Positions 811 through 31,376 of a stretch of DNA of 64,000 nucleotides are shown in pieces (within the stretch, counting starts at the first letter, position 1; the number at the start of each line of letters is the position of its first letter). The translations under genes were made by a program, and so were the position numbers. This DNA is from Phoronis australis (taxonomy: Eukaryota; Animalia; Phoronida). The stretch is from NCBI GenBank assembly GCA_002633005.1, contig NMRA01000135.1:404183-468182 (forward strand). The letters run 5' to 3'. The notes below the pieces were generated by a model. That model did no database searches, was not told where the DNA came from, and saw nothing but the letters and a program-made list of their open reading frames with translations.

Positions 811-3800
811 CTGTTCTTTTAGAGAGTCCTCTTTCTGCTTCAGTTCTTCTTCCAGAGCTATTTTCATTTTCTCCTCAAATTCTCGTCGCTCTTTATCTAA
901 CCGTTCCTGTAATAAAACGGAGTTGGTACAGTCAAACAGCCTAGGGGTCTGTTGCTATAGAAACTGACTTGTCTTAACTTCCAAACATTGAAACAAAACT
1001 TACATCAAAAACTTAAGTTAATAAGTATCAGTCCACGGATCCACCAACAACAGTATACAGCCCGATTGCCCGTGTACATGTAGATTTTGCGTCGGGCAAG
1101 TGGAATTTGAAAAGTACTTGCCCGATGGGCAAGTTAAAAAGCTAGCTGCATAGGCAAGTAGATCCTAAGATTGTCTGCTCGACATTTGCTCCAAAGTAAC
1201 GAACCCCGACACAAGCCTAAAAACCGTCGAAAAAGCCCCTGTGGCCGTCAAAGAAACTCCCGTCTTTGAATGAGCACCGAAAGGAAAATAGAACGAGTGT
1301 GATGCAATGTGCACAGATGACGCTCGCGGTCAAATCGTTTCGATTCTCTGAACGTGCCTGCAGTTTCTGTATAAGTTGTCACGTGATACTACTGATCGTC
1401 TGCACTCTGGCAAAACGTCTAAACATGGCCTGGACGGCATTGGTTTAGTTGCTAAAAAACGAGTTCAGGAAGAATCAAAGCAATATTAGGAAACGACAAG
1501 TGCGGGGATGGGTTCCGTCATGGGAAATTAGGTTTTCTGACCTGTGAGACAGTGAACAAGGGATGACGTTTGATTTTTGCCGGCGTTTACCTATGTACAG
1601 CTGGAAGCACCGCGTTCGTCAGCGGATGTAAGTCATGCAGATAAGCGCAAAAGCTAAAAAGTGAATGATTGACGACATATTTTCTACACTACACAGCAGT
1701 TCAAAAGGCCTGGTGTTTATTCAGGGGGAATTCCAAAGGACATTCTTATGAATTCCCGGCTCCCGGTGGCGACTCCCGAAAGAAGAGGAATACGGTCTTC
1801 GGGATTGCCGCTCTGAAGTCTGAAGGGTGACTTTTTCGCGGTCTATCTATTTTTCAAAAATGTAATTATTTATTCAAAATAAAAATATATGTGGCATTAT
1901 TATGTGTTAAAATTTTGATTTTAATTTAATACAAGCTACCGATGACCAAAAATGTGCAAGATTTTTACGGATAGCAAAAAATGAAATTCAGGTTAGCAAC
2001 AACTCAAGTTTAATGCATGAGGCCATGAGGGCGTATCAACTAATGAATACACAGAAGTGTCCAGAGTTCATGCCCTAGCTCATTTCGGCGCCTGTGAACG
2101 TGTGACAGTGGTTCAGATACCATAGTTACTCTTCTAATTTGTCTCTCTAGTGTTTTGACACAACTTATAAATAAATGTTCTATAAGAATCGTTAAAAAAA
2201 TAGTAACTCATGTATATAGCGTGCACAACACAAGCGGAGGCTCAGCACAGGCACCCCTACGGTAACACATTACCTAGGTGTGCACATGCACAGTGCTATT
2301 TGGGATTGTACTTGGGACAAGTGAATTCGTTGTTCGGGCAAGTAAAAATTTCAACTTAAAAAGTTAATGTTGAGCCCTGGTATACAGCCTACAAACGGCA
2401 AGGTGGGGGGTCAGCCATTCAGAACCAAGTTTAGTCTAATAAATCACATTAGGGATGAGAGAAATTTGGTGAAGTATGACACCACAAAGTTTGGTGGTTT
2501 AAGATATACTAGGGTAGTCTTCTAGGAGGCAAAATGAGGCAATTTCTTGATGCGGAATGGATCACTTTTGACTACATTTTCTACTACAGTTTCTGCTTCA
2601 AACAGAATCATTTCTGAATAATTTTGATATCACATGATAGGTTCATGACCAATGTAAGCAAAAATGGCACCGACACTAAAATATCGGTTACCATGGAAAC
2701 ACTGGAGCTGTTTCCGTGGAGATACATTTCATGCTTGCGAAAAACCAGCAGTATAATATACCCTTATAGTGAAGCTGTCCCCACGAGAAAACTGAAAATA
2801 ATGAGATGGGCATGTAGAAGACTCTATGCCCTTGAAATTAATACAAAAAACCTTTGTCAGCCCTTCATGCCGGCTTGATAATAGAAGCCTATTTTCAGCC
2901 CACACATCTGTGTATTTGTCATGTGAAACCAGTCACTAGTTGTGCGCCATTTGTACGCATTAAAATGCCGTGGTATAATACTACAATTAACAGAATTGGC
3001 TTGCTTAAATGTTTTTAATTTATTTTAAGGACGCAAGCAGTTCCCACTACAATATGGAATTATACTAGATTTGTTCATCTAACTCATTGAATACCAAATT
3101 AAAGCATACAATATGCGGTAGTTGAATGATGGCTGCAGGTTTTCGAATCTGAAAATTGAGTATTTTACAAATTGCCTAGAGAACAACTTTGAAAACTCTT
3201 GGGAAATGCACAAGGAACTTAGGGAGACATTTCAGAACCGTAGAAAAGTGACGGGAGATGATATGAAGGAGGTGGAACGTGTCCTCCCGAGTTGTCTATC
3301 TGCCTCGCAGAGGTGCAGCAGGAGCTAGACAATCTAACGTAGTAGATTAACTTGCATCGATAGGACCCTAGACATGTATTGGCGTTGCCAAAGACACTAA
3401 GCACATCCACTCCTCACAAAAGGTAAAATCCGACAGAGGTCTGAAAAATGACCAGACGTAAAATCAAGGTTCAACGTCCTGCTTCGCCTGTGTGAGCTCA
3501 AGTAGGAATCACCAAACTCCAGGGTCTGACCCTGAGGAATATTTTTAGGAGCACGTCAATCATGCATGAATACTTTTATTGACGCACCATAATAGCATAG
3601 AACTTGGGCCTGATTGCTTAATCATATCTTATTTCAAATGTCATGAAATATATGCAGTGTATTGTTACACAACGACTACATGACTGCAGAGGTGAACAAC
3701 TGAACAAAATGAATGGCATGCCAACAGTGTTAGCAATATCCTGGTTAATATGTTTGGTTAAGTTCATCACTTTTGTTACAGGCGTAGGACTGCAACAGGT

Positions 3801-6800
3801 ACCCGATATCACAGAACTGTTGTCTTGCGCTGTTATTCGCGGTTGTGGTCCTTGAATATTTCTCTTTGGTTCCAATAACTTTTAATGATAACCACCAAAT
3901 GTATTTAAACATTTTACATGACTTTAAGGTTATAAAAACCAGGATGGTAGTGAACTAGGGTGGGGACATCTTGTACGGTTGCATCGGGGATTTCAGACGG
4001 TCTTGCTAGAAATGGCTTAGCAAATACATAGTATCCAGTGGCTGCTACTCAAGCACACTAGAGTAACCACCTCTATTGAGGCTCTGTTGTTTTCATTTTG
4101 GTTGATCCCTATAGCCTATGACTGTGAACATGCTGCCCCCCTAAAATTCTCCCAGATACCATTTGGCAGTTTGGGGTGCGAATTGCTGACTATAGCATAT
4201 GCGCGCACCAAGGGTGGCTCAGGAGTGAATGCAAAAGGCATAGGCCTTGAACAAACTCTGTTTACTTTTTTTAGAAATAAGGTCAACAAACCCAAAAATT
4301 CAAGACCACTGGATCCTTACATTTTAGGCTGGGCGCGCGCATGTGGCGAAATTCTGGTTATTCCTGTGCCCTGGCCCCGCCTAATGCAAAATCCTGGATC
4401 CGCCCCTGGCTTCAGTCTGAACAAAATTCTTACCATTTGAGTCTGAAATATTTACGACGTAGATTAACTGTTGGCGATAGAAGAGCTGCACTCGGCTAGC
4501 TACGGGCATGGAACATTGGGCCTGAGGAACATCGAGGGGGGGAAATATCGGAACAGACAATTTTGGGAATATTGGAACGGAGGAATATCGTAAAGCACTG
4601 GGTCTTTTATAACAGCTTAAAAGAACACAGTTCCGCCGGTATATTCTTTAAGTTAGGACTGTCGCTGTTCTCTTTTGGTGTGCACGCACGTAAGTTCCCA
4701 CACTCTGGAGTACATGTTACATTGACATCAAGATATGTGACAGGTGACTACTACAGACATGCATACTGAATCTCGCCGCTGTCTTTTGTCATAAAAAACA
4801 AGACGCATATTGAAAGAGGCCGTTATATTACATGACGGCATTTCCAAGTCCCGATTGTCAGTAGGGGACATTGTGCATAAACAGCGGGACCGGCCAGTGC
4901 CGCTGTGCGATATTGCAGATGATAGTATAATAGTATACAGTGGCAAATTTGGGGAGGGCAAGGCATGCGCGCTCCCAGCCTTTAATATGGGGGAGCTCGA
5001 ATTTCTGGCGATGTGGACCTTTTGCTGACAAAAATGCGGAAGGACTAAAAAAAAAAAACGGGGTACCACCTTCACTGTGCATTTGAGCCTTTTCAGTGGA
5101 CTTTTGTCTCGTTTTCTCTGACTTTTTGTTTCTCAGAGGCGGGTCTTTTTGCCCACTTCGCCAAATGGGGGGGCTCGTTCGAGCTCCCAAGCCCCCCTGG
5201 GTGCGTGCATGCAAGGGGGCCATGCCCCCCCCCCCCTAAAATTCTCCCAGATAACATTTGGCTTTGAACAAACCCTGTTTACCGTTTTTCTTAGTAATAA
5301 GGTCTGCAAACCCAAAAATTCGAGACCCCTGCATCCCTACATTTTAGGCTGGACTGTCATGACATTTTTACCATCATTTGGCGACGTGACGATAAAGCTC
5401 TTTGAAAAGTGTTACGCATTCTGAGTATGTGTGTCGTGTGGAGACTCGGATCACGAGGTAAGATTAACCGCCCCGGGCGGTTGTCTGTCGTAATAAGTGC
5501 CCATGTTCGGTTAACCGCCCACCCACGATTTCTGGAAATTTCACGTTTAAGCGCCCATGTCTGGTTTACCGCCCATCCCCGAATTTTTGGGCTCCCCAAT
5601 TTAACCGCCCAGGGCGTTAACCCGAATGTTAACGTAAACGTGGATTTCGATTTAACCGCGCACTGCTCGGTTAACCACCCCTCTGTGATTTTTAAGATTT
5701 CCAGTTTAGCGCCCACCTCTCGGTTAAACGCCCATCCCCGACTTTTGAAGATTGGTAATAATGCGCCCAGTGCAAAGGAAACGCGAGATTACCCAATTTT
5801 AGATAAAAATCGGTGATAACAAAGAATGCAACGACAGCATCGGAGACGGTGGTTTGACAATGTGAATTATAATACAAGTAATAAATTATTGTCCCGGGTC
5901 ATGCATTTGCTTCAAAATGCAATACCTTGAACGCTTTGTCACTTTATTTTCTTCCCATGTTCGCAAAACTAAGAACACCGCTGGCTTCGATACCTAGGAT
6001 CATCGATGCCGTCTGCCAAGCTAAGTTTCCGTGTGCAGTGCACTAGATAACATATATTCGAAAAAATAAAGCCAGAGAAACGCGAGAGTGGTCTTGCCAA
6101 CACTCCTAATTCGCTTTCGGTGAGTTCTCGGATTTTGAAGAATTCCCTATACCGGTACTTTGTGAATATTGTTTCCACCTACCTTTTAAGCCCTCCCGAA
6201 TAATTTTGTTTCCTTATTGACTAGTTTCAGCCGGAACAAAATCCTTCCCATTCGAGTCTGAAATATCTATGACTGACTGAAAATTGGCAACAGTGGGGAG
6301 GGGGTAACCCCTGGGGCCTAAGGAACTTCGAGCCGCAAATTATCAGAACTGAGACATCGCGTCGCAGTTTTGGGGTTTTTTTAAATAGCAAGAGGCCCAA
6401 GTTCAGTGTCAAACAAACACCCGGTCAGCTTAAACCTACACTCAAGCCGCTATACTCTTATTCTTAGTACTGTCGCTGTTCTCTTTTGAAGTGTGACTTT
6501 GGTGTGCGTGCGAATTCTCCCACCCTCTGGAGTGCAAGTTACCTCGACTGCATATGTGAGAGACAGGTTACTCACATGCGCGTGCTCAATCCCGGAAAGA
6601 AGGTCTTAAGAATTCGTTTGCCACTATCTTGCCATAAAAAAACGAGACGCAAATTGAAACAGGCCGTTATATTACTTGCCGCCATTTCCAAGTCGCCATC
6701 GTTTGTGAGGACATTGCGCACAAACAGCGGGACCGAACAGTGTCGCAGTAGGATATTGTAGGTAATATTATAATAGGATAATCTGGATGTCTTGCATGTA

Positions 6801-9800
6801 AAATAAAAATGTGTTTTTCCACCACAAAATTTGGTAAGTTGATCGTTTAACAATAAATACAAGCATCGCTGTTTTGTGACATTTTATCACATATGTATGC
6901 CGTGGTCCATATATTGGAAATTCCAGGTTGCATGTTACGACTAAATACAAGATGACTAAAATCTCGGCTCACACTTTCAAAATTCAGGTCACCAATGCGA
7001 CCTGCAGCTCATTATGCCTAGCGCCGAGTCCCATTTGCAACAACACCGACTCAGTAAGGACGCTTTGCTCATTGTAACTCGCCAGTAATTTAGTCGTATA
7101 ACAAACCACTGGTGTCAGTTACCCGAATAATGGGAGCTTCGTCTTCGAATTATTTTTACCGACGCAGGTACTTGTATGAACTACTTCTTTCTCAGACTCC
7201 ACTGTGCGGGTTCATTAGACTCACCCCATTTATGGTGTTAGTATTTTTTAAAATTAAAATCTTAAGTACTTGTTTTTGAGTAATGCCTTTGCGGTAACTT
7301 TTGATTGACGACTGGCTTATGTCTGCCTACCTCTGCCGGGCGGTCAAAATAAAAGGGCCGCAGAGCCTTATGTGAAAATGTCATTGAATCACAGAGTCTC
7401 GAACATAGACATCCCAAACACACAAAAAAAAACACCTGAATTACTTTTTCAAATAATTTAAAACTGCTCTCTAACTCAGAACTTGACAACTATCATGTGA
7501 CTTTGCTGTGACCAATGCAGCACGTGAAGCTTGCACGCGCGCACTTTGCACTGTCATCACGTCAGTGAGGATAGGTGCAATCCAAGTGGAGCGCTGCATA
7601 GTCAGTGGTCGTCTGCACTCTCTACAGGTACAGCTCTAACAAGACTGCAGGACGGCACAGGCTATTACTCAGCAATTTTGTAAATTTAACTGAAATGATT
7701 AATCTGACGGCAACAGAACCTTTGTTGGAATCATCCGCTGTTATGACATTTTTACCGTCATTTGATTTGGCAACGTGGTGATAAAGCTCAGAAAAGAGCT
7801 ATGGGTTCCAACTACGTGTTGGACTGGGATCATGAGGTAAGATTAACCGCCCACCCCGGTTGTCTGTCATAATAAGCGCCCATGTTCGGTTAACCACCCA
7901 CCTGCGATTTCTTTAAATTTCATGTTTAAGCGCCCATATATGGTTAATCGGCCACCCCCAATTTTTGGGGTTCGCCAATTTAACCGCCCAGGGCGTTAAC
8001 TCGAACGTTTACGGTAGTATTCCATATGTAACATAGATTTATTTACTAGATACAAAATTACAGCATACGTTTATTTGCAGCAAAAACAAGATGACCATGA
8101 AATCACTCAACTGCAAAGTGTAACTGGGATGAAATCGCATCCTCTTATTAAGCTGCTTTTCGATGACCAACATATCAGTGGAGAAATTGTGCACAGCAAT
8201 GACCTACCACTAGACTTAACGGATAGCTTTCAGTCACTATTTATTGTCTCATTAAAATATCAGTGTTACAACTGCAACTACAAAGGTTACACACAACGCA
8301 GCGCAGCGAAGCTGGTAATAGCATCCTCATAAATTTGTACATGGATGGTTGTCTTGCATGACACGTCTATATTTGTACAATGCGGGGTCATTGTCTCACA
8401 CGATGCGTCTATTCGATTCCTTCACAGCAAATGCAGCTTGCTCACAGTCGACAATGTGTGACTGCTGACAGTCTGCGAGTGACGTCTGCGTACCACTGGG
8501 TCAGTGAACTCATGACATGGCGGTCGTGCATCAGGACATACCATGTCCATGTAATTTTGGCTTCTTGCAAGCACTTTACGACGATCAACCACGCAGTCGT
8601 AGTGACCACTGCTATGCCAGGCAATGACACAGGCTGGCCTTGAGATGTCAATGTTTCCATAGTAATGTACAGTTGTCGATACCGTAGGATTATCAGACGC
8701 TCCTCCCAGCGCAATAAAAATGTTGACGCGTAATAGTTTTGACAGCGCCATGATGCTTTCATAACCGCCCCATTCGCCGTCTTTCCTCAGTTGTCTCAGC
8801 TGCTGAACTATCCAATCATTTGTCTTCACATCGGCGCAATCCGATGGTACTTCAAAGAAAACACGAAAGTCTGAAAGATGGCGCTCTATGTAATCCATAG
8901 TTTGCTTTCGCAGGTTGAAATGTTCTTCTTGAGTTCCATATATGGAGTAGGACACAGCCCGAAATAAGCAGTTACCATCTGGGATGACTTGATAGCGACG
9001 TAAATTGAACTTTGCAAGATATGCATCCTGCACTTCATATTCATTCAGTCGTGGCTCACTTGATCCACTGGAGCTATTGGTGCCACCATGGTTGTTATTG
9101 TCGTTCTCTTCGATAAAATCGCTGTGGTAACTGCTGCTACGGTGAAGACTGTCTCCAGACCTGAACACATGTCTACTACACTTGCTACATACCCCTGGCT
9201 ATCCATAAAACAAAAAATGGAGTTTGTACAATGAACTTAGACTTGTCATACATTCCACCATCCCACAGGAAACTAGGGCACAAGCTCGTCGCATAGATAT
9301 CAGTAGATAGGCGTACCTATTGCTCACTTTGTTTTTCATCTTTTTTATAATAAAGATGATGGTAAGAATTTATCGGTAACCAGCTGATGGGCGCCCAAGG
9401 TAGGATATCCGTGCGACCTGTATTGTTATATCCAACAAAGACGCAACAAAGGAAAAGAATGGTAGCGTCTCAAAGGCGATAACCATGCGACGCGCTTACA
9501 CACGTCACATTAAACAATATTTTGCGAAACCCATACGATGCCATTTGGCATGGGATAGTTGGATTCTAATTAATGCAATATGAGATACAATCTCATTAAA
9601 AATTGTCTGTTATTGTAAGGTTAATAAGAATCAAGCTTTACATAATAATCTATGCGGAATGTTGTAAAATTGCTTTGTATTTGAACTGGATTTCTCCAAA
9701 AGTACTAAAGCATGCTTGGTGTTAGACGTTACTATGGATTTCTGATGAAAAGACAAGTCATATAATTCAATACTTATCTACATTGTCCATGGTATTTAAT

Positions 9801-12800
9801 TTTAATTGTTATGACACAAGAATAATTTCTATTCACTATGCACAGGATTACCATTTGGAATGACCAGTGACAAAAGAGGAAAATTTTCGAGGTGATGACT
9901 TGTTCCACAAATAGACTTGTTTTTTGTGTTGTAAATTTATCTAAAGTCAAAATAATGATAAAAAGAGATGAAAAAAGAGGAAAATGGGAATAAAATAAGA
10001 GGAAATCAAAACCAACAAGAGCAACGTGGAGTGTTGAAATGCACCCACGAATGCACCGCAAACAGAGTGCTTCTAGGGTTGTTTGTTTCATAAAATTAGC
10101 CACTAGATGGCGAAAAAACGTCCAATCCATCTGAACATGGGAACATGCCATAGCTTTTTTAATAGAAACCTATTTACCAAATTTCATAAAAATCTGTCAA
10201 GGAACTTCAGAGAAACAAAGGAAAACAAAAAAATTGAAATTGCCACTATGGGGCACAGCGTTCATTGGATCCGCCTGAAAGACTTTGTCATCTGTTGTTA
10301 GCTTCATATCAATTACCAAATTTAAAAAAGATCCTGCAGTGAGTTTAGGAGATGCAATTATGGGCACAAACCAAAACAAAACTACCACTAGGAGGCACCA
10401 CAGTAGTTGAATTCGTTATCGTCAACCGTCCTCTTCACACTGAGTGCATATACGCCAATTTTCAAAGTCATCCATAGAATGGTTTGGTTGATTGAGGGGA
10501 CACCAAAAAACAAGACTCGAAAACAGGAAAAATGTCCACTAGGTGGCGCAAAGTAAATCGATTCCATCCGAAAGTGGGAGGATAGCATCACTACATACCA
10601 CAACTTTGATAATCCATTGAGGACCTTTGAAGATACAGAGCTAAGCCTAAAAAATTAAAATTGCCACTAGGGGGCACACTGGTAGTCAGATCTGTCCGAA
10701 AGTTGTTGTCATCTGTTGTCAACATCATATAAATACACTTGCTAAGTTTAGCAAAGAAGCTGCAAACGGTTTAGGAGATACAGCCATGGGCGCAAAAACC
10801 AAAACTGCCACTAGGAGGCACCACAGTAGTCGAAGTCGTCAGAAAATCATCGTCAACTTCGTAGTAAGAACATACATACCAATTTTCANAACCAAAACAA
10901 AACTACCACTAGGAGGCACCACAGTAGTTGAATTCGTTATCGTCAACCGTCCTCTTCACACTGAGTGCATATACACCAATTTTCAAAGTCATCCTTAGAA
11001 TGGTTTGGTTGATAGAGGGGACACCAAAAAACAAGACTCGAAAACAGGAAAAATGTCCACTAGGTGGCGCAAAGTAAATCGATTCCATCCGAAAGTGGGA
11101 GGATAGCATCACTACATACCAAAACTTTGATAATCCATTGAGGACCTTTGAAGATACAGAGGTAAGCCTAAAAAATTAAAATTGCCACTAGGGGGCACAC
11201 TGGTAGTCAGATCTGTCCGAAAGTTGTCATCTGTTGTCAACATCATATAAATACACTTGCTAAGTTTAGCAAAGAAGCTACAAACGGTTTAGGAGATACA
11301 GCCATGGGCGCAAAAACCAAAACTGCCACTAGGAGGCACCACAGTAGTCGAAGTCGTCAGAAAATCATCGTCAACTTCGTAGTAAGAACATACATACCAA
11401 TTTTCACAATCATCCTTAGAGCAGTCTGGTTGATAGACGGGTGGACGTCAAAACACGTACTAAAAGACAGTAAAAATGGCCACTAGGTGGCGTAAAGTAT
11501 GTCACATCCATACGAAAATGAGAGGATAGCGTCATATCACTAATAGATGCCTATATTCCAAATTTCATGAAAATACGTTGAGGACCTTTGAAGATAGAGG
11601 TAAACGTAAAAAACTAAAATTGCCACTAGGGGGCACACCGGTAGTCAGATCCTTCCGAATGGCGTCGTCTATTGTCAACGTCATATAAATACATTTGTGA
11701 ATTTAGTAAAGATCCTGCCAACGGTTTAGGAGGTGCCACAGTCATCGAAATTGTCAGAAAATCATCGTCAGCCGTCCTCTTCATAGTAAGAACATACATG
11801 CCAATTTCCACAATCATGCTTGGAGCGGTTTGGTTGATACAGGGGTGGACGTCTAAAAACATACTCAAAAACGGAAAACATGGCCACTAGGTGGCGCCAA
11901 TTCTGTCGAATCTATCCGAAAATGGGCGGATAGCGTCATCTTATAATAGATGCCTATATGCCAAATAATATGAAAATATGCTGAAGACCTTTGAAGATAT
12001 AGAGGTAAGCATAAAAAACTAAAATTGCCACTAGGGGGCACACTGGCAGTCGGATCCGTCCGAAAGTTCGCTCAAGCCTTCCCATACATGATAGGATCAT
12101 ATGTGCAAAATTTCATGAACGTATGTCGAAGGGTTTTGAGATAGAGCAACGGATGCCGGACGGAGGGACAGAGATGATGGCAAAATGCGTCCACATACAA
12201 ATATGTGGGCGTGTAAAAAGAGGAAACCTCTCAAAAGTGGAAATTCCGAACCTTGTATACAATGGAGCACCCGATAATTCGAGTTAGTGTCATAAAATGT
12301 CAAACAAACAAATCATTTCACATTCAATCCATAAAAAATAAGTCAAATAATGGCACGATTTATTGTCATATTCTCGGATGTCATTAAAAACCTGCCATTA
12401 AATTGATTCTCATCTGCTTATTAGAATATGCACCTTCGCCTTTCTATCTAAAACCAAGTAGCTCACCTTAAATTCATTTGCCATCAGAACTCAGTGTCGG
12501 GTACAAAATCAGTCGTTTGCTTTTTAGCAATTTAATCTCCACTTAGCATGATCAGCTTAGAAGAGTAGTTACAATAGCAGCCAAGTCAGAACCAATTTAA
12601 TGGAATGTCCCGCTCATTATCATAATTTATGATGTAACCATGTTTAGGACATGAAGCCATCTCCACAATACTCACCTGCTGTTCAGCCAACTCTTTTCTC
12701 ATGATCTCTTCCTTTGTTTTCATTTCCTGTGAAATTTTTTCTTGCATTAGATCTCTCTGTTTCAACTGTTCCTCCATGGCTCGCAACTGTTCCTCTGCCT

Positions 12801-15800
12801 CTCTCACCATTGCCTGGGCAGCCTCTTCCTTCTCTCTCAGTTTTTGCCTCATGAGCGTTGACGGCGACCAAATATCAACGGCGTGCTTAAGATTGAGTCT
12901 GCAGCTGGGTGATACACGTTTTTCCGGGGGAACGTCCTGGTCATTAGAAGGCAAGTCAAGCTGCTTTCTCTTTCTGACTTTTGGAACATTTTGAACGCGC
13001 ACTTTTAAACATGTCCTGAACTCATAAACAAAGACTGCCGGTTTGTTGTTTTCTGGTGCAACGCCCAATCGTAGCAGATCTCTGTCATTCAGGGGGTGTG
13101 GTTTTAGTGGTTCCAATTTTTCATCATTGATGTAGCACCCATTTAAACTCTACAAATATTAAACCGTCTAATGTCACACATGTAGTTAGACAGTTTTGCT
13201 GATCTATGACAATGCAAAAGACAACCATGGCAAACATTTAGTACAGAATGACTGACAAATTTGATTTTAAAATGAATTTGATTTTAAAATGAAATCATAA
13301 GAGCTGCTAAATTTTACAAACATTGAGTAGGTGGCTTGGCAGAAGAATGAGAAAATTTAAAAAATCTTGACAAAAAACACAATGTTATTTATTTGTTAAG
13401 TGGATCACTGCAGTGAACATAAGCATTTAATGATGGCATACTTTAAATCACCTTCTATCAAACAATCAATTTTCAAATTGATTTAAAGCACTGGCAGTTA
13501 CAAAACGGGGAGAGATGTTCCCTAGATGCAGGACACTCACGAAGCACTTGCGGTGAGAAATCTTCGCTTTATGGAATGGAAACAGAGAACTCTATCCAAT
13601 AATTCAACATTCCGTCCTTATTGACCAATCACTTAATCAGTGGTCACTGCTTTTCTAGGGTATGCTAATACGTTCCCCTGCATACTACTTGCAAACGATT
13701 CGCCTTTCACTTGCCACACCATTTCACGTGGTCTTGAATGGTCTTGGTTTTTTGCAAGATTCGTGTGTACTACACAGTGCATCCCTGGTCTTAAACTTGT
13801 TCCTTCTCAGATGAGAAGTGAGTAAGGGCTTGGCAAGAACAGTCAGTTCATTACTGCCCAACCCTATGCTTATTTTAATATTATATTAAGAACACATATT
13901 CATTGCATAAAATGATTCGCAGGGTCAAGCCAACCAGTAAGTTAGCTAGGTCAATTCTTCCCCAACTCAAGTTTTTACTAACAAATGCAACATGGGTACA
14001 ACCCCAGTAGTACGTAGCAGCTTTAGTACATAGAAACATGACCACAACAGCCCCGTGAGGTGGCAAAACCAACTTAGCAATGATCTTGAGTTGGAAAGGG
14101 TGGGACAGTCATCAGCTTACTAACTCTCCAATTATCCACCACTGTGTTTACATGATATGGTGTTGTTCCAGAATGCCATCTGGTGGTGATTACAACCCAG
14201 AGAATGGCTGAGGTCCTAACTATGATCGCTGTGCTTTAAAAATTGCATCACACTGGTAGTAATAAAAGAGTGAGATAAGAACAGCCCTATCTTTTTCAAA
14301 AAGCTCTCATGGAATTTTGCATTAATGAAGGACAAAAGGGCAGATCCAGGATTTTTCAAAATGGGGGTCCAAGTCAACAATTTGAAAATTCTAGATTTCA
14401 TATCACTAAAATCAAGGATCGCTTATGCTTCAACAGTCAGGTATATTTACCTTATTATCTACAACTGTCCAAACTCCGTCACACTTTTGTAATACTGCGT
14501 GTTTTCTTGATATCATAGCATCAGGAATACACACTGTAGCTTCTTCTGATCTCCCAATAATGAGCTGCAAAGATGTGATATTGAATTGCATTCAACAACA
14601 TTAAGCTTTCAGTCAAAATGTAAATCCTTTATGAGGTGTTAGTCAAAGGAGTCCCTCTATGCTTGGCATGTTCATAGCAACTAATCTTTCATGACTCAGC
14701 AAGGGCAAGGTTTAATTTGACAAAAAAATGCAAATTCAGAGGTTTTAAAATGTGCCATCATCTCTGCTAGGACCAGCTGAAGACCAACCACCACAAGACA
14801 ACAGTTATCTCAATTCTAATATGAGCTAAACCTAAAAATACGGTTAAAAGTGTTAGAAAGGCCATTCATCCTCACCCAGTTGTAGGCAGTTCTACAAAGC
14901 GCTTTAAGGTTATGAAGGATCTAATCAGAAAGTCTGCGTTTAAAGACAAATATCTACAAAACTGCAGATTTTAACTCCGTGAAAGTATATATTTTTTAAA
15001 AGCAGAAAGCTGGTAGAATTAATTTTTATCTTTTTTACCAATCTCAGTGCCATTAATTAGGTCACATGGCCATGAATTTTAAATAAAATTTAGCAAAAAA
15101 ACAATCATGGTACAATAACTACACTGACAGGAGAACAGTGGTATCAATAATATTACCAAATTTCATTTAATATAAGAGTACAAGATGAAATCTCAAAAGA
15201 GTTTGTAAAGTTTTCTGTTTCATGGTTCTGCAAGTCAATGCTCCACAAACTTAGCAGTAGAAGAACTGTACAACAGTAACTTTCTTAACACCTGTAACCA
15301 ATTTGTTACTCAAAGAAGTTTTTAAACATTAATTTCATGTCAGGTTTTGCTTGGGCAGCTTGTTCTCATATCATTCCAAAGCTGTATATTTATACAGTTT
15401 TGCACCAAGTCTATCTAGCACACCAGACAGTACAACTGTCTGAACTGTGCTCACAAAGCTGACTCAGACACTTGCCATCTCACAGGCCCTCCACATGCCG
15501 CAAGCTTTTTGCAACGTTATGCTTTATACTGAATAAACCATCAGTTACATTGTTATAAGTACAATTCGAGCATAAGACAACTCTTGAGACTGCCAATGTT
15601 TTTGAATCCTTACACTTAAAACTTGAACAAAAACCTTGGTGATTAGGATTATTAAGATTTCTTTCTGAGACGTCTCTTCTTTCGTGAACGAACTCAGTGA
15701 CAAAAAAACAGTTTGCTCAGGTACAAGAATAGCGACCCTAGCTAACTCTGGTGGATCACCTGGTGATTTAATTGTTCAGTCCAGAGATTATAGAGTTCGA

Positions 15801-16486
15801 GCTAGATTTGACTAGAAATTTAATTTAAATGACAGGAGGATTTAAGATCAAACTGCCTACACACAATTGAAATGAAGAAAGGTACTTATTAGTACCTTTA
15901 GTCTGGGTTTAGCGAAATTTGTTGAAAAGTTTCCAGCTCACAGCAATGACTAGGAGGCACTGGTCAGATATTAAGCGGCCCCCGATTTAGAGAACCTGTT
16001 TCATCCACTAAGTAACGGGCCCGTTACTCAATGATTGTCTGGTTCTCTAAATCAGGGACAGCTATATCCGATCAGGGTTTGACTGGCGTGCGTTCAGTAA
16101 CGGTAGGACCTACGCTAGGACCTAGCTAAAATCTATCTAAAGTCACGTGTTCTCATTTAAAATACACAGCAATATCTCACATAATCTCCCGAAGTCTTGC
16201 TTTTTAGCGAGGTCATAGCGTTACTGAACAGGAGACTGGTATGTGCCACCGAATGTGTGCCTATCCGCTGCCCGCACGCCTGATCGTGCCTGCGAGCAGA
16301 AATGTTTTTTCGTCAGCACAGTGTGGCCATCTACCAGAAGGCCATTGTTGCGATTACTATTTGATCTCAATAAAACTTTAGCTTCACCACCTCTTGCTTC
16401 TTCTCCAAAGAAACAATTTGATCTTTCTTCCTAACTTTTGCAGTATAAGGGCCAACTTTTCTTAAACAACAGATCTCCGTTTCCAT
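811..16486 (-). CDS. RNF8: E3 ubiquitin ligase RNF8 homolog, 5' part (FHA domain + coiled coil); remaining exons including RING presumably beyond the window start
   Basis: Exons, all phase 0 with GT-AG ends: 16486-16391 (METEICCLRKVGP...KKQE), 14564-14451 (LIIGRSEEATVCIPDAMISRKHAVLQKCDGVWTVVDNK), 13149-12676 (SLNGCYINDEKLEPLKPHPLNDRDLLRLGVAPENNKPAVFVYEF...coiled coil), 906-811 (ERLDKERREFEEKMK...KEQ). The FHA hallmarks GR, SRxH and SLNG, plus CLRxVG and the LGVxxENxxxAxxxYE tail, match vertebrate RNF8 as I recall it. No RING is visible in the window. Confidence 0.88.
1053..2387. mobile_element. Non-autonomous hAT-like element remnant
   Basis: Right end ...ATGTTGAGCCCTG; subterminal CGGGCAAGT motifs near both ends; GTATACAG at 1053-1060 and 2380-2387 resembles an 8-bp TSD. 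The left TIR is not intact. Confidence 0.5.
4405..7017. mobile_element. Nested fragments of the non-autonomous DNA-transposon family seen at 17318-19513
   Basis: Shared blocks (TTCAG(C/T)C(G/T)GAACAA, ACTGTCGCTGTTCT, CCACCACAAnnTTTGGTAAGTTGATCG, AATGCGACCTGCAGCTC) at ~4410-4925 and ~6225-7010 also occur at ~18330-19500. Confidence 0.6.
5355..5780. mobile_element. MITE-like repeat with (TTAACCGCCCA)-type subrepeats, copy 1
   Basis: Closely similar to 7740-8016 (GGTAAGATTAACCGCCC...GGGCGTTAAC). Confidence 0.6.
7740..8016. mobile_element. MITE-like repeat copy 2, ending in TACGGTA (pogo/Tigger-like terminus)
   Basis: Similar to 5355-5640 and ends ...GTTTACGGTA. The superfamily assignment is an inference from that terminus. 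Confidence 0.55.
8038..8075 (-). terminator. Candidate polyadenylation signals for the OTU exon
   Basis: TTTATT (AATAAA on -) at 8038-8043 and 8070-8075, about 350-380 nt downstream of the OTU stop at 8422. Confidence 0.4.
8422..9198 (-). CDS. OTUD1: OTU-domain deubiquitinase, OTUD1-like; single long exon lacking its own usable ATG
   Basis: The frame is open from 9198 (after TAG at 9201-9199) to the stop at 8422. It contains QDAYL..YQVIPDGNCLFRAVS (catalytic D/C), DGEWGGY, LGGASDNPTVSTTVHYYG...SRP and WHSSGHYD (catalytic H), closely resembling OTUD1 (IPDGNCLYRAVS; GGRLESPTVSTMIHYLG; WLSNGHYD). The ORF-track start at 9168 is GTG, and the first in-frame ATG lies after the catalytic Cys. Confidence 0.85.
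   Translation of the reverse strand, partial: PGVCSKCSRHVFRSGDSLHRSSSYHSDFIEENDNNNHGGTNSSSGSSEPRLNEYEVQDAYLAKFNLRRYQVIPDGNCLFRAVSYSIYGTQEEHFNLRKQTMDYIERHLSDFRVFFEVPSDCADVKTNDWIVQQLRQLRKDGEWGGYESIMALSKLLRVNIFIALGGASDNPTVSTTVHYYGNIDISRPACVIAWHSSGHYDCVVDRRKVLARSQNYMDMVCPDARPPCHEFTDPVVRRRHSQTVSSHTLSTVSKLHLL
10014..12219 (+). mobile_element. Helentron-associated non-autonomous element (HINE/DINE-1/pearl-like) with internal ~140-bp tandem array
   Basis: Starts AACAAGAGCAACGTGGAGTGTTGAAATGCACCCAC, a terminus shared with copies at 29139, 39064 (-) and 39682 (-). It has internal tandem repeats, a GGAC-type short tract (~12158) and a terminal hairpin GCGTCCACATA-CAAA-TATGTGGGCGT followed by an A run. 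This architecture fits known HINE-type elements. Confidence 0.65.
15956..16075. mobile_element. Short palindromic MITE-like element (GGCACTGGTC-G/A-GAT end), copy in RNF8 intron 1
   Basis: Reverse-complement match to ~16850-16934; related fragments at ~33295-33356 and ~35071-35133. Confidence 0.55.
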
Positions 16487-16632
16487 TTTGAGAGCCCGCC
16501 TGTGAAATACGTCATAATATGTGTGTGTACACAGCTTTCCGTGACATGGTAGGAAAGAAATGTACATTGGGCATGCGCAAAAATCGTTCTCTTTGCAATC
16601 TGCCATTTTGCATTGCACAAGCACGTGTAAGT
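16487..16632. promoter_or_regulatory. Compact bidirectional promoter RNF8/FAU with FAU non-coding exon 1
   Basis: RNF8 ATG at 16486 (-). NRF1-like GCATGCGCA at 16571-16579. TCT/TOP-type initiator TCTCTTT at 16588-16594. YY1-like GCCATTTT at 16602-16609. GTAAGT donor at 16627, which would splice to the CCAG acceptor ending at 19724 just before the FAU ATG. Confidence 0.7.
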
Positions 16633-19736: not shown

Positions 19737-22266
19737 ATGCAGCTATTTGTGTCTGGTCAACAGACCCACACCCTGGAGGTGACTGGTGAAGAAACTGTGT
19801 TTGATGTTAAGGTATGCGAAAATGTTGTTTTTGTCCATCACTTAGCCGAATCGTTTCCTTAATGTATGCAGTTGGGCCCACTTGTGCAAATTCAGAGTGT
19901 TCCATGTCTTGTGAAATTTTAGATTTCATCTATGGATCTTGGTAATCAAACTCCTCGGATAATTCAAAGGCTATTAAAGCCTGTTCAGACCTATGATCAG
20001 GTATTAATAATAATAACTTTACCATTGATCATTCTAAAGCAAAATAATGCTTTGTGACAGTCCTCAACCGTCAAAAAGGTTGGAGCAAAAGGTGAAACTC
20101 CTTTCAAAGTCTTCTTAATGGGCAAGCATGATCTATGTTTTTGGCGAGTTAAACGGTAACTGTGTGGGAAGACCACCCTCCAATAACCATAATATCTGTT
20201 TTGTAACACAGTGAGTGTTTTTAGTTAAATGCTGCTTTTAGTTATTACTCAAGTGAGATGCCAATAGTACAATGTTGAAATCGACAAAACGGTTTAATAT
20301 CCTATTAATGTATTCGTTAAGAGGCATTCAACTTTGTTGTAAGCACGTGGGTTGACTATTGTAATATAGGAAGACGAAGTTCTATGTATGTTGCACAAAT
20401 GGACTGGTTTGTGTTTGATGACATGTTTTGGTGCTGCAATTGCTTCTTTTGGTAAATGACAGGAGAATAGCTGAGTATAGTAATTGGCTGTAAGCTATTG
20501 TGAAACAGCCTAGCACTAAGTTATATTTAAAACTATTTCATGTATGAAACATCTTTTATGCGTCGTGACTAATTTTTTCTGTCTATGTCTCATTAGAACC
20601 ATTCACATGTTACTAGTGATAGGCCGATGGTCGATTATTGTTGAAAAATAATTTATAATATGATCAAAAGTCAAATGGATGAGCTTGATTTTGCTGTAAA
20701 AGTTGTTGCACAACTCAGCATAATTATAAATTGAATAGTCCTTATTACAAACTGTTTTTTGATATTTTCTGTTTCGTCGCTGTTTGTGTCCTTGTTGCAC
20801 AATCTGGCGTAATTATAGGCTCTATTGAATAGTTCTTACTACAAACTGTTTTTTGAGGTTTTCTGTTGTCACTATTTGTGTCCTTGTTTCACAATCTGAT
20901 GTAATTATAAGCTCTATTGTATAGTCCTTACTAAAAACTTTTCTATTTTTGTCACACAATTTATGCTGTTCATGTATAAGAATTGGTGATGTCACCTGAC
21001 CTAAACTCTCCTCCCCTGTCGTGTTGCTGTACACCTCCCCCTTCACTGAATATACAAGGTGGGAATGGTGGGATTCCTCGCAGTAATTGGTTATCTCTTT
21101 GGTTATTCTCACTTGTGAGTTGATACATGTCAATGCATGATGGTTGATATTGTGTATTTCAGAGCCGCCTAGCTGCCCTGGAGGGAATCCCAGTGAGTGA
21201 GCAAGTTCTTCTTCACTCTGGCCAACCCCTGGACAATGAGACGCTTCTGACTGGTGTGCCTGAGCTCTCTACTCTCAGCCTGACTGTCAAACTGCTCGGA
21301 GGTCAGTAGATATAGCAAGGGGAGCATGTCTGAGCTGTTGAGGCTGTGTTGTTGAGCTGTGCTTTTGCCCTGAACATTTGGAAGAATCAGTGATGTAGTC
21401 TTGCAAGTGACATGCTTAATACAGTTGATGTAAGAACGTTATGTCTTGTCAATACATTTACCGTCCTTGCAAATAAGTATTGTTATGTAGTTTTATTGAG
21501 AAGTGTTTTTAATTGTTTCATGGAACAAGGCACACTCCATTTTCAAGCCCTTAAAGGGCACAATCTCAGACCATCGTTTCATTTCTTAACTTTGTATGAT
21601 TTTGTGTCCTCTGTTCTTCTTTTGTGATTAAATTATGCTTTATCTTTGGCAGGCAAAGTCCACGGTTCTTTGGCCCGTGCTGGAAAAGTGAAGGGTCAGA
21701 CTCCCAAGGTGAGTATTAGTTGTAGTACTATTGTATGTTGAGATAAGGAGGTATTCTGAAAGGTAATGCAGATATGTTTTGGGTTTAATCTATACAGTAA
21801 GAGCAAGGCATTATTTTTAGGTATGCATTGCCCACCCACCTATATTTTTGTTTTGCTTCCCTAACCGAGCACCCATAATTTTTAACTACTTTGGATTCAT
21901 CCACACTCAATTTTTCCAATAGCCGGTAATATTTAATTTTGAACAAGAAAACAAGTGAGCATTTCTTTTTTGTTCTGATTATAACTACCCCCATTTTATT
22001 TCAAATGTATTTTATTTCAAATGTTCCCCGCTCTGTATTGATTCGATTGGATGGAACGGTCCAAATTTTGATTGAATTGTGTTATTGTCCCTTGCACTTT
22101 ATTGTTACATTTCGAAACATAAATTTTGTGTTCGTTCCAGGTTGAAAAACAAGAAAAGAAGAAAAAGAAGACTGGCCGTGCAAAGCGCAGAATCCAGTAC
22201 AACCGTCGCTTTGTCAACGTTGTGGCTACGTTTGGCAGGAGGAAGGGACCCAACTCCAACTCATAA
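19737..22266 (+). CDS. FAU: Ubiquitin-like FUBI - 40S ribosomal protein S30 fusion
   Basis: Exons 19737-19811 ([25 protein letters not shown]), 21163-21301 ([23 protein letters not shown]...KLLG), 21653-21708 ([19 protein letters not shown]), 22141-22266 ([41 protein letters not shown]). The LLGG|[12 protein letters not shown] cleavage junction is diagnostic. Confidence 0.98.
20700..20960. repeat. Degenerate ~90-bp tandem repeat (~2.5-3 copies) in FAU intron 2
   Basis: ATTGxATAGTxCTTAxTAxAAACT... recurs at ~20730, ~20824 and ~20916. Confidence 0.7.
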
Positions 22267-26100: not shown

Positions 26101-29100
26101 GAAGAAAATTTCAAACGTTTCAAAATTAGGCCTTTCAACTAAATAACTCTATAACATTTCAGAAACAAGCAGCGACTAAGTCGTTATTTTCAGTACTTTA
26201 GGGGTCATCTTTTGCTGACAAAAATTGTAAAAAAGTGGGTAAACTTAGTCATATCATCAAAAATTAAGTACTATGGCACACAACCTTTGGTATTTGGGTC
26301 TGGGGTCTCACAGTGGAAATGTGTTTATGGTCTTGCCATACATAACCCAGTCTTAGAACGTTCAAGCTCGTCTCAACACCATGATGATAGAAACAAGGAT
26401 GAATGGAAAACGACCAACTTTGGCTAAAAATGCCTGAAATGCGACACCATCTAGGGGGTTCTTGGACAGATTGTACAACACATGGTCAGTTCCTCCTCAG
26501 GTATTTCCCATTTTCAAGATCACACTGAGAACTACTTTGAAGTAACACCGTCTAATACGTCTGATACTGACATCAAGACCTATGTTTTCAATTTTTAATA
26601 AAGATCAACGGGGAATTCCTAGTATATATTTTATTCTTGGTACCGTAAGACAGGTCTAAACACTCTAGAACAATGACTGCTCTCAATTTCATGCACCACA
26701 ACAACTTACGTTTTACCATTTCTACCGTTTGAGACACTTGACTTTGATTGTCTTTACCAAGTAGACTATCTGTCACGTAACTGAAACAAATTCTAAGAAT
26801 GAACTTCAGCTGGTATCATCAGATTAATACTTATTAAGTCAATTTTAATCTACAATTAGTTAGATTTGTATTGCATAGGTTAATAAATGACATTGGGCAG
26901 CAAGGCGATCACCCAAAGCAGAAAAATGACATCAATCGTGTAAAATTAGTAGTAAGAATTAAGCCCTCCGTGCGACTGATTATTATGTGAGTGACTCAAA
27001 CAATGTTATTAGTAACCTGACAAAATGACTTTTTTTAAATATTCTAAAATCATAGGGTTTACAATGAAAATGAGAGCACCAGACAATGAGAAGTGAAAAT
27101 TTGAAATATTTTATGTACGTACCAACCAACACATCAGGATAGACGGAAGGGAAACAAAATAGTTTAAGGATGTCCTAACAAAGATTTATTTCTCAAGTCA
27201 ACATTTGCATAAAAAGCATGAGAAATAACAGCCAAGAACCAAAAGCCTATATTTTGGAAATCTAAGTCTCAGGGTAACAAATTGTTAGATTGTAATATGG
27301 TCAAAAAGAGATGAAGGTTACCATCCATGACACATTGCGCAACGTAAATTTTGCATGTTTGGCACAGAGAACATGTTTGTAGATTCTGGACGAGTGTTAC
27401 TTGTTTAACAAACATGGGTTTTAGCATTGGTATCTAGAAATGTAATACTAACAATGATGTTTAACTGGCAAACAAACCCTCTGCACATTGTTTGATTGGA
27501 AATGGACAAAGCTTGGAGTTTGTCGAATACCAAATATCCTGTGTGACACACAGTAATAATCAAAAAGAAGTTAGTAATGATTAAATACTAACAGCCACAA
27601 ATTTATAAAAAGTGCGTGCCCAACTAGGCTGAAACAAGAGCTAATATTAGTCGGGCATACCTGTCTAGGTTGATGTGTTGCCGAGTAGCACTGGACAAAA
27701 TGGCGGAAAGAGCAATCTGTGATGGGGCAAAGATGAGGCAAGCGTCTGTGTTCAGTGACTTGTCTAGAAAATCCTCCGCACCCTTCCTGAGAATTTCTGC
27801 GTTCTCCAACCAGCTACACTTGGTCTACAATGAAACAAAATTGTACACGTTCAAGTGTGTTAAGCTTATTTATCCAAAATTGTTCTTTTGAGTGAAACTA
27901 ATGGATTGAACATAAAGACTTCTTAAATCATATCCTTTACTTTTTACTGCAAGAATGTATCATGCTCATTACGCCATATATCAGATGTCAATTGTCACAT
28001 AGTGTTTGATTTTACTTTATTTCTGTTTCTGTTTCTGTTGAGGAAGGATGTTATTATATCCAAAAATTTCAGCGATCCACTATACGTATATCGTATATTT
28101 ATTCTAACTTTCCTGATAATGCCTCTTCATTCTCGGTTTGAGGAAAGTCTTCTTTGACGATGAATTCGGCTTTCGCACACTCGCGATGACGGGGGGAAAT
28201 CCTATCATTTTGTCTGAACGCATTTGTTGTGTACTGTACATACATGTGCCTAATATCTATGCCTAAATCAGGTTACCTTGATGTCTATAAACAACCCCTC
28301 TAGAGGCCTGAAGGGGTTGTGTATTGTAAGATGGTAATTCAGCTGCTGCATCAGTAGCAATTCAAAACTGAGTATGATGTCTGCTAGTACTTCAGGGTCT
28401 CCCTTGATGTTGGCCACAAACTGCATAATGGACACATTGAACTCTTCAACTTTACACGCCAGGTAAACACAAGTCAACCTAAAAGATAAGGTTAATAGTT
28501 GAACATTTAGTTTGATGATTTTAAGTTTAACTTATTAAACAATGCACAAACCATTACAAAGGAAATAACAATAAATTTGCTCACAACATTTTGTAATTCT
28601 AAATACCCACATCCTGACAGTCACTCATTACAGTAATCTTTTAAGGAATTGCACTTGATGTGACCCAGTAAGTTTTAATTTTGTTTCTAAATGGAAACAT
28701 TTAGATAATGCGTTCACACTACTTACATAGTAGATTACGTAATGAAACAATGAGCCAACATTTTGGTAAATTGTTAACTTTAGGACTCCTTCACCTCATC
28801 CAATAATAAACACAATAAACACTAATTAAAATTAGATTACAAGACTCAAACCGATTCTGTAAAATGTTTTGGATGCATAGGCAGCCATTAAATCAAATTT
28901 TTCGAATAATCATGATTAAGAACAGCCATGGTCACTTCCCCACTAATGAAGACTGTATATTTAGTATTACAGCTTTGTACCAAGGCTAGCTTGAAGAGCA
29001 CCTTTCTAATGACTGCACTGAGTGCAAAAGCAACTCTTACATTATTTCTCTAGGATGATAGTCCATAACTGAATTGTGAAGGTAGAATCTCTTCAAATAG

Positions 29101-31376
29101 GCCATCGCTGTTCCCTGAAAAAATCAAAAGCAGACTTTACAAGATCAACACTGAGCATTGGTATGCGCCCACCGTGTGCATCGTAAATGAATAGGGGGTG
29201 CTCACTTTTTCAAGCATTTCCAAATTCCAAGCACTAGAGTGAGCAATCCACAAGGAGCAGTGCTTGTCATTTGGAAATTCCCACATGCAATCTTGGATAA
29301 TATTGAGACTGCCATAGCAATGATTAAAATCGCCACCAGGGGCACTGCAGCCATTAAATCCATCTAATAACTGATGCTAGTAATGCAAACCATAATAACT
29401 CATTTGCCACGATTCCTGAATGGGAGAGGTGGATAACAAAGAGCCAACTAAACTAATAAAATTGCCTGTAGGTGGCACAGCATAAGTTACAAAAATGGGC
29501 AAGTGTACTCTGAGAACTGAAAACCTTCTAAAAATCAACACCAGTTAAGATTCTGTCAATAGAAATATCTGTGACAAATTTTTGTAAAAATTCTTCACAC
29601 CAGAAAGACAGGTATCAAAAATGGATAGCAAAAACTGCCATTAGGCGAAAGCAGAATCCAGACTCATTCAAAAACCAACGCCACCCTGCTCTTAAAAAAG
29701 GAGCATATCTCTCAAATCCCCTTCACCAAACTTAGTAGATATTGAGACAGGTACAAATTAAAACTAAAACTGCCACCTCAGCCATGTTCTCGCATCTCTC
29801 AAGTTTTATGAACATCTTTCTATCAGTTTGGCAGATACAGAAGTGGATGACAAAAACGGACACAAGAACACCAAAACTGTCACTTGGGGGTGCAGCAGTA
29901 GTTGGATCAGCCGGAAATTTATGGATAGTGCCATGTTCTTGATAAAAACACATCAGATTCAGTGAATTATCATGAAGTTCCAGTAAGTGACTTGGTAGAT
30001 ACACGCTAAGGGAAACGTAAAAACGTAAAATTGCCACTACATTTATCCGTCAAAGAGTCATAGTCGTCCATCGTCTGCTTCATAAGAATACACAAGAGTA
30101 GTGACTAATTTCAAGAAGATCTTGCAAGGACTTGAGATACTGCAGCAAACAACAAGACAAAAATAAAACAGTTTCAATTCTGATTTTCAAAAATGCTAAC
30201 TATGCAATAAATATGAAACGTCAAACAGGCGATTTTTTGAAAAACCACACATTAACTAATTGACTAAATTCATTCTCATGAGCAATTTTTGTGACTTACA
30301 ATGACGTTGCGTGGCATGGGAGGCTTGAAACGACAGCAAAATTCCTTGAGTGCATACTCATAATGCCTACATAATAACCACTCTTCTGCTGTAGTCAAGA
30401 ACTTGCTGCAATCTTTCTGAGTCTCTTCCTGCTGCAAATGAAGCAACCATAGAATATAAATGAGTGTTCTCACAACAATCAAACAAACAACACATTGATT
30501 ATGTCGACACTCACTTTGACAAACTGCTAGCAAAATCATTCTACAGTAACTTGTGGAAAACATGCTAAATAAGTTTTCTAATTTGTTTTCGCTCGGTTTT
30601 CTTTTGATTTTCAAGAGATGCAAAATGGGTGAAGACACAATGGTTAGAATTTGATCTTCAGACCGTCAGTTTTATAATCCTACCNNNNNNNNNNNNNNNN
30701 NNNNNNNNNNNNNNNNNNNNNNNNNNNNNNNNNNNNNNNNNNNAGGAAGGCAGGGAGACAGTAGGGGTCAAGTGGGCGGTAGTGTGACATAGCATAGTCA
30801 ATTTAAAGATACATTTATACAATTCACTAAACAGATGTTCATAAGTTTGTTTGTTCACAGTTGAGTGTTTTTATGTACCACAAGTAGATTTAATAGCAGT
30901 GATTAGTATAAAACAAGTTGTCCTGGAAAACCAAAGTCACTTGAGAATCTGATTCTGCAGTGCAAAACGAAAATGCTGTGAAGTACAATAGCATCCCAAC
31001 TGTTTTAGCCACAGTTAAAAATGAAGCACAATGTTTAAAATTCAACATTTCAGCAAGTGGATTACATTTCACTGAGTACTCACGACAGTTTATATCACAC
31101 GACAGGGAAAAGCGATACCTCAACTGACGTCTGTACTCTTCGAGTGCTATCTAGATATCTTCCTAGCGCCTTTTCTGCATGTTTGATCTGGTTTTGAAAG
31201 TGGTCTGCACTCTCCTAGTGGTTTCTAGATAAGTACGTTCTCAATATAATTACCCCTTCTTCTTCACTCTTGCTCTCAAGTTTTACATAGGATTCATTGG
31301 CCTCCTCTCTCAGTATGTGTAGTTCGGCTTCGCTAGGAAAAGTCCAGTGTTTCATCTGTGAACTACTGGAGAACAT
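23179..31376 (-). CDS. CCNH: Cyclin H (CAK/TFIIH subunit), 9 coding exons, ~329 aa
   Basis: Exons 31376-31254 ([13 protein letters not shown]...), 30428/30431-30300 (...[14 protein letters not shown]), 29114-29041 ([24 protein letters not shown]), 28478-28277 ([16 protein letters not shown]...[15 protein letters not shown]), 27824-27661 (...[17 protein letters not shown]...), 26780-26710, 26007-25896 (...[13 protein letters not shown]), 24592-24517, 23217-23179 ([12 protein letters not shown]). Phases are consistent throughout. An acceptor ~12 nt upstream of the ATG implies a non-coding first exon. Confidence 0.96.
24080..24522. repeat. ~70-bp minisatellite containing repeated copies of the CCNH exon-8 splice donor
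   Basis: CTCACCTCACT at 24106, 24178, 24250, 24321, 24389, 24460 and 24512 (spacings 72, 72, 71, 68, 71, 52). Confidence 0.9.
29139..30150 (+). mobile_element. Degenerate copy of the HINE-like element in the intron between CCNH coding exons 2 and 3
   Basis: ACAAGATCAACACTGAGCATTGGTATGCGCCCACCGTGTGCATC start, followed by diverged repeat units (CGCCACCAGGGGCAC, AAAATTGCCACTA). Confidence 0.55.
30685..30743. other. Assembly gap (N run)
   Basis: 59 consecutive n. Single n also occurs at 10889, 34671 and 55596. Confidence 0.99.

Follow-up and report, generated by a model that had tools for sequence, protein, structure and literature searches.

An OTU-domain last exon spliced to an RNF8-like gene of Phoronis australis, and a possible ubiquitin writer/eraser switch

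Introduction

Can one gene encode both an enzyme that writes a ubiquitin mark and one that erases it? The question is raised by a stretch of 64,000 nucleotides (nt) from the phoronid Phoronis australis (assembly GCA_002633005.1, contig NMRA01000135.1, positions 404,183 to 468,182 of the forward strand), in which an RNF8-like gene on the minus strand holds, in a presumed intron and on the same strand, a reading frame for an OTU deubiquitinase domain. The whole stretch is referred to below as the window, and all positions are window positions. The FHA domain of human RNF8 binds ATM-phosphorylated MDC1, and its RING domain builds K63 chains with Ubc13 (PMC5325457). A preliminary description of the window, made from the sequence without database searches, proposed that the OTU frame could be spliced to the FHA-coding exons of the RNF8-like gene, and that the choice of last exon could act as a writer/eraser switch. 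We found that RNA reads join exon 3 of this gene to the OTU frame. On balance, and by a modest degree, we favour the reading that the frame serves the RNF8-like gene as a last exon, spliced in frame, with a predicted product of 486 residues, an FHA-coiled coil-OTU deubiquitinase likely to oppose a RING form that the same gene would make.

Results

RNA reads join the RNF8-like gene to the OTU exon

The window has the split genes of animal DNA and a GC content of about 38%. The OTU frame occupies 8422..9198 of the minus strand (777 nt including the stop codon) and encodes 258 amino acids (aa), in which Pfam recognises an OTU domain (E = 2.4e-19); a disordered linker of about 50 aa is followed by the domain itself, at approximately codons 51-205, and by a 53-aa tail. 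The frame is closed upstream by a TAG at 9201-9199, and its first methionine is codon 101, downstream of the catalytic cysteine at codon 77, so that, within 9198-8422, no in-frame ATG precedes the catalytic Cys. The same TAG contains the AG of a splice acceptor (9199..9223, minus strand; ...TTTTATGGATAG/CCA, with the slash marking the splice boundary), which is in phase 0 and matches the phase-0 donor of exon 3 of the surrounding gene (CAG/GTGAGT at 12676). Joining exons of 96, 114, 474 and 777 nt gives the predicted 486 aa, or 487 with an exon-1 donor 3 nt further on, and AATAAA signals lie downstream of the frame at 8245, 8075 and 8043. In each of these respects the locus is as the preliminary description had it.

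We compared RNA with positions 7900-10100 in three raw runs from the same species (X1-X3) and in a small contig set (X4). In X2, 42 reads have a loose end at 9200, where they diverge from the reference, with an agreement of 1.0. The 30 loose-end letters match a single place in the window, 12678-12707, at the end of exon 3; the one mismatch is synonymous. As letters 9199-9200 are compatible with either side, this match places the junction at 12676 to 9198, exactly the joint that had been predicted. Bins from 8344 to 9157 are covered at 33-71x in both X1 and X2, and the first mates over the exon all map to the plus strand, as is expected of minus-strand RNA in most types of stranded library; by a rough estimate, the exon receives 25-32 reads per kb per million. 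At its edge we estimate a depth of approximately 57 in X2 and 42 in X1; in the next bin upstream of the acceptor, the same-strand depth is 0.6 and 2.2, respectively. The preliminary description had named three outcomes that would speak against it, namely no junction reads, a local start and no expression of the exon; what we found are the junction reads, an upstream depth of 0.6-2.2 and an exon depth of 33-71x, so that none of the three was borne out. The X4 contigs (32 million letters) leave the exon uncovered and are uninformative.

On the 3' side, depth is still 35-49x at 8344-8417; it is 2-3x at 8196-8269 and zero at 8122-8195. The OTU transcript has its own 3' end at approximately 8200-8270, inside the host intron and beside the AATAAA at 8245-8240, which is the likely polyadenylation signal; on the depth drop and this signal, we assigned 8200..8421 (minus strand) to its 3' untranslated region. 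The OTU exon is a last exon in its behaviour, and the reality of an mRNA that fuses exon 3 to it is hardly in doubt.

The OTU frame is also open for 56 codons above the TAG, a stretch with four ATGs that the preliminary description had missed, and an ATG at 9339 is followed by a phase-0 donor-like site (AAA/GTGAGC at 9328); a local start therefore has to be considered. Both the ATG and the donor-like site lie within an element resembling a miniature inverted-repeat transposable element (MITE) at 9282..9497, with no strand assigned. This MITE-like element is 216 nt long, has 20-nt terminal inverted repeats (9282-9301 and 9478-9497, 85% complementary), ends 84 nt above the OTU acceptor and has one copy in the window. 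Reads at 9232-9527 are divergent, lie on both strands, occur in all three raw runs including X3, and come from other copies of the element. No joint from 9328 to 9198 was present among those listed for X1-X3. A joint at 9294-9413 was rejected as a splice, having non-canonical ends and the opposite orientation, being seen in X3 and lying within the MITE-like element. Read-through of the TAG and a start at an out-of-frame ATG just above the acceptor were both rejected because reads do not extend upstream of the acceptor.

The host gene is RNF8-like

Exon 2 (14451..14564, minus strand) encodes the first half of an FHA domain, with the GR and SxxH motifs (Pfam FHA, E = 1.2e-8), and exon 3 (12676..13149, minus strand) encodes its end, with SLNG, followed by a linker and a predicted coiled coil (Pfam FHA, E = 2e-4). 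The top solved relative of exon 3 is human RNF8 (structure 2pie, residues 73-116, E = 8e-4), and exon 2 aligned to residues 47-72 of the same structure, with RNF8 ranking third among 11 matches. The two halves abut at 72/73 of 2pie and together form a contiguous match to RNF8. The translated exons contain IGRS, ISRKH and SLNG; the corresponding GR, SxxH and NG motifs, which we take to be the phospho-threonine contacts of FHA domains, are intact here.

A putative exon 1 (16391..16486, minus strand; 32 codons from an ATG at 16486) was placed by its position and by frame and phase, and no database match of its own was found; a second donor at 16388 would give one extra residue. All three exons are in phase 0. 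Another in-frame ATG is present at approximately 16607, 40 codons above the ATG at 16486, in window positions 16514-16617 of the minus strand, and could lengthen the N-terminus.

Exon 4 and the putative RING form

An exon 4 of 32 codons, coiled-coil-like in character, is predicted at 811..906 (minus strand) as the likely route to a RING outside the window. It was the best of seven phase-0/0 candidates in 12675-1, with a charged-residue content of 0.66 compared with 0.20 for the next, and it has a good acceptor and an open phase-0/0 frame. It would prolong the predicted coiled coil of exon 3; for both the end of exon 3 and exon 4, the coiled-coil call is by amino-acid composition. No specific database match was found for exon 4, its matches being generic helical proteins. 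The reading of 907-12675 as a single RNF8 intron depends on exon 4 and thus on sequence evidence. We nevertheless consider it quite probable that the RING form is also made here. Of the proposed writer/eraser switch, then, the OTU form is seen as an RNA junction, whereas the RING form is deduced from the sequence of exon 4.

Two peculiarities of the surrounding DNA are recorded here. A 98% near-identical duplicate at 10369-11412, with 521-nt spacing, lies on both sides of a lone N (position 10889), within a degenerate array of 400-520-nt repeats; it is probably an assembly overlap, in which case the true length of the intron would be some 0.5 kb less. Tandem duplications at 1-321 and 281-381 (periods 159 and 48) lie in the intron after exon 4.

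The OTU domain is intact and stands beside OTUD1

The DGNC (C77) and GHYD (H199, D201) motifs of the OTU exon align to human OTUD1 (4bop), and the Cys-His-Asp triad is intact. OTUD1 is also the best solved relative (E = 7e-35, compared with 3e-7 for OTUD3), and identity to an OTUD1-type protein reaches 45% over 155 columns. A structure model based on 21 sequences has predicted local distance difference test (pLDDT) values of 86-98 at residues 51-210, with disordered ends, and its top fold match is again human OTUD1 (E = 5e-18; template modelling score 0.91 by target). Among coding variants in the reads, six of seven are synonymous third-position changes and the seventh is in the linker (neutral share 0.27, P = 0.002), a result that is indicative only. 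The model and the alignments make the domain look functional, and the product of the exon is probably an active enzyme. Altered catalytic motifs do occur among the OTUD1-related relatives (P0042, P0051, P0053 and P0059).

We made an exhaustive search for relatives of the OTU domain, which found 2675, of which the best 150 were listed. For phylogenetic analysis, 53 domains were taken by hand from 157 proteins and six near-redundant OTUD1-type rows were removed, giving trees of 48 rows. Twelve of these rows are labelled MULE-type, although a MULE domain was found in three of the 12 and the others were so grouped by resemblance. The top matches of the OTU exon are OTUD1-type, and the trees place it within a wide OTUD1-related clade (100/99). 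It falls, however, outside the 17-row OTUD1-type clade (support 98/94 and 99/94 in two trees) and beside a group that includes OTU domains of MULE transposases (93/83). An 11-residue insert in the exon is absent from its OTUD1-type top matches and common to this second group; with gappy columns removed, the exon still grouped with the insert-bearing domains (95/84). Forcing it into the OTUD1 clade was rejected, though at a borderline level (approximately unbiased test, P = 0.044 and 0.040). Its end branch is ordinary in length (0.52-0.58, compared with medians of 0.46-0.47). The earlier designation of the exon as OTUD1-like therefore stands as a matter of similarity and fails as one of descent: the trees suggest a sister lineage rather than OTUD1 proper, subject to the borderline outcome of the test.

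The preliminary description had further invoked the preference of OTUD1 for K63 chains, which OTUD1 owes to a tail with a ubiquitin-interacting motif (UIM). In a comparison of tails by eye, a UIM tail of the NPEY..W..DEELA type was seen in eight of the 10 close OTUD1 rows and, loosely, in four of seven more distant ones; by the same comparison it is absent from the OTU exon. Pfam was uninformative on this point, as it also missed the motif in an OTUD1-type control. According to PMC3705208, OTUD1 lacking the UIM has lower activity and is nonspecific. The argument thus does not carry over, and a K63 preference is not expected.

Relatives of the OTU domain are fused to transposases and to death-fold proteins

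Among the 150 scanned relatives, four (P0008, P0037, P0054 and P0087) are OTU-MULE fusions, in which the OTU domain is N-terminal and belongs to the OTUD1 superclade. In the trees, the insert-bearing OTU domains are the sister group of OTUD1, and OTUD1 and the transposon OTU lineage may share an origin. OTUD1-related OTU domains are also fused to Death, DED and DED-NACHT domains (P0042, P0069 and P0119), which suggests repeated recruitment into immune-type proteins. A study of transposon proteins lists OTU domains in Ginger1 and Helitron, and Ulp1 in Mutator (PMC2836005); in our literature search, no description of OTU capture by Mutator was found. In the window, a tblastn search with 12 query proteins detected no remnant of a transposase, and the OTU exon was not found to be enclosed by terminal repeats. 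The exon is likely to have arrived as a mobile module from the sister lineage of OTUD1 that is elsewhere fused to MULE transposases and death-fold proteins; the trees suggest a transposon origin but do not demonstrate it.

Other genes in the window

A gene for ribosomal protein S30 (FAU) lies at approximately 21100-22266 on the plus strand, divergent to the RNF8-like gene (Pfam S30 in its last exon, E = 3.6e-16). An ankyrin-repeat gene at approximately 41600-48864 (plus strand) has at its end a SOCS-box match that is weak and does not reach the cut-off (E = 0.009), and likely encodes an ASB-type ligase adaptor. Exon-like frames at 54904-55221 (plus strand) and approximately 27600-30600 (minus strand) presumably resemble RMDN-family and cyclin-C proteins; Pfam gave no support in the two frames scanned.

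Discussion

How one locus might write and erase

After exon 3, the gene would choose between two endings. Splicing to 9198, with polyadenylation near 8230, would yield the FHA-coiled coil-OTU form, for which the junction itself was seen in RNA; skipping to 906 would lead onward to the RING. As its FHA motifs for phospho-threonine are intact, the OTU form would reach the sites of RNF8, presumably binding the same phospho-threonines, and there it could compete with the ligase and remove ubiquitin. Lacking a UIM, it would have little linkage preference of its own, and its selectivity would come from the location set by the FHA domain. Each use of the OTU exon would also take that transcript out of the RING pool, and the two forms might possibly pair through the coiled coil. 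We judge the chances of antagonism at RNF8 sites to be about even. A writer/eraser switch at one locus is plausible. A bolder proposal is that a single RNF8 locus serves as writer and eraser of the DNA-damage ubiquitin mark, with a tissue- or state-dependent last exon from a transposon-borne OTU lineage swapping RING for OTU and so damping RNF8 signalling at its own sites; this we put forward tentatively, with more doubt than belief.

Alternative explanations and points against

Other explanations of the same data were weighed. Least probable by a wide distance is an independent nested gene with a local start, either from ATG 9339, through a mini-exon whose donor is at 9328, or by read-through of the TAG, for which the RNF8 junction would be minor leakage. 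The 56 open codons, their four ATGs and the phase-0 donor-like site would allow it, yet the 42 X2 reads carry exon-3 letters, the 9328-to-9198 joint is missing from those listed, and on the same strand depth drops from approximately 42-57 at the exon edge to 0.6-2.2 above the acceptor. ATG 9339, moreover, belongs to the MITE-like element, where the reads diverge from the reference, map to both strands and are found even in X3, a run with zero cover of the exon. In X1 and X2, this explanation is largely refuted. Less far-fetched, but still unlikely, is a takeover of the gene by the OTU exon, with FHA-coiled coil-OTU as its sole or dominant product and no switch, exon 4 onward being unused or the ligase job falling to another copy. 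The exon is indeed well expressed (approximately 25-32 per kb per million), the window has no RING, exon 4 is known as sequence and its donor is weak; an unused exon, however, would be expected to decay, whereas the phase-0/0 frame of exon 4 is still open, its acceptor is good and its coiled-coil composition puts it far above the six other candidates.

We give similarly low credence to an exon trap from a mobile element, which would mainly shorten RNF8 transcripts, lowering ligase output or making a RING-less competitor, with the enzymatic activity incidental and the insertion maybe polymorphic. Transposons carrying OTU domains are on record (PMC2836005), OTU-MULE fusions make up four of the 150 relatives scanned, the domain clusters in the tree with insert-bearing OTUs including those of MULE transposases (95/84), and X3 is without cover of the exon. 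Against this stand the lack of a transposase remnant (12 query proteins) or of enclosing terminal repeats in the window, the intact frame and triad with six of seven listed variants synonymous, and an end branch of ordinary length. It is slightly less probable again that the product is an active FHA-targeted deubiquitinase with its main role elsewhere than in DNA repair, such as innate-immune ubiquitin signalling in certain tissues. The fusions to Death, DED and DED-NACHT, an all-or-none expression across runs and the NF-kB links reported for RNF8 (PMC5325457) are consistent with such a role; but the FHA domain is RNF8-type and common to the presumed ligase form, so that RNF8's own targets are the simplest.

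The reading we favour, a last exon of the RNF8-like gene that encodes an opposing deubiquitinase, also needs to be treated cautiously, as several observations weigh against it. X3 has zero cover of the OTU exon, which could reflect tissue choice, low expression of the gene or an individual without the exon. The junction was seen in X2, among the loose-end rows listed, and in X1 it is deduced from depth; the junction reads display 30 bases of exon 3, and the presence of exons 1 and 2 on the same mRNA follows from the gene model. Read mapping spanned 7900-10100, and the route to a RING is a prediction from the sequence. The exon-4 donor (CAG/GTTATT) is not a strong consensus, and no RING was found within the window; it would lie beyond the window end. 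The seven coding variants are a selected subset, coming from 40 listed of the 206 variant rows over the stretch, and the missing UIM tail takes away the expected K63 preference. Conservation likewise finds no support, since a word-index search gave no longer homologue of exon 3 and an FHA domain was found in none of the 149 OTU homologues scanned among the best 150 of 2675 (for four proteins the scan covered the best five families only, and the remaining one of the 150 has OTU alone on record).

Relation to known systems

Wider searches gave no second case. The word-index search with the OTU domain returned seven matches near its length and two longer ones, neither of the latter with FHA. A metagenome scan with the OTU domain found no relative, and no animal locus came from the OTU or exon-3 scans; the single metagenome match to exon 3 was dropped as a bacterial-type FHA gene (69% GC, no OTU match). 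An atlas cluster search gave generic OTU clusters, with FHA clusters under 0.9. In the literature we found no description of an FHA-OTU or RNF8-OTU protein, most subscription journals being outside the reach of the search.

The locus resembles RNF8, an FHA-coiled coil-RING E3 ligase, in that the FHA of exon 3 is closest to RNF8 among solved structures and is followed by a predicted coiled coil, whereas the transcript seen here ends in OTU rather than RING. With OTUD1 (4bop) it shares the top sequence and fold match and the triad; it differs in its 11-residue insert, in having neither a UIM tail nor its own start, and in its sister-clade position. It has the insert in common with the MULE-type OTUs of transposons and groups with them in both trees, but no transposase or terminal repeats were found around the exon, which serves as a host exon. 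A20 (TNFAIP3) combines an OTU eraser with an E3-like function as a writer on one chain. One gene with both activities would be common to A20 and this locus, although the locus would divide them between mutually exclusive splice forms that share one targeting domain. The closest parallel in architecture is CSB-PGBD3, for which a location in intron 5 of human ERCC6, both products shown as protein, and conservation over 43 Myr are reported (PMC2268245). In both cases an intron of a DNA-repair gene supplies an alternative last exon, joined in frame, and a foreign domain attached to the host N-terminus takes the place of the catalytic half. The addition in CSB-PGBD3 is a whole domesticated transposase, while here it is a deubiquitinase with an activity opposite to that of the host; here, too, the second product is one that we infer, and a transposon origin is only suggested.

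Implications

The arrangement has been seen in one animal species, and its ligase form is deduced. If the reading is true, an E3 ligase gene would carry its own off switch: splicing would put a deubiquitinase in place of the RING, and the same phospho-reader would direct it. The OTU form would be a natural counterpart of a targeted deubiquitinase. The idea is testable in human cells, because RNF8 foci assays are standard. More broadly, new host enzymes may come from a mobile OTU lineage that is the sister of OTUD1 and is carried on MULE transposases.

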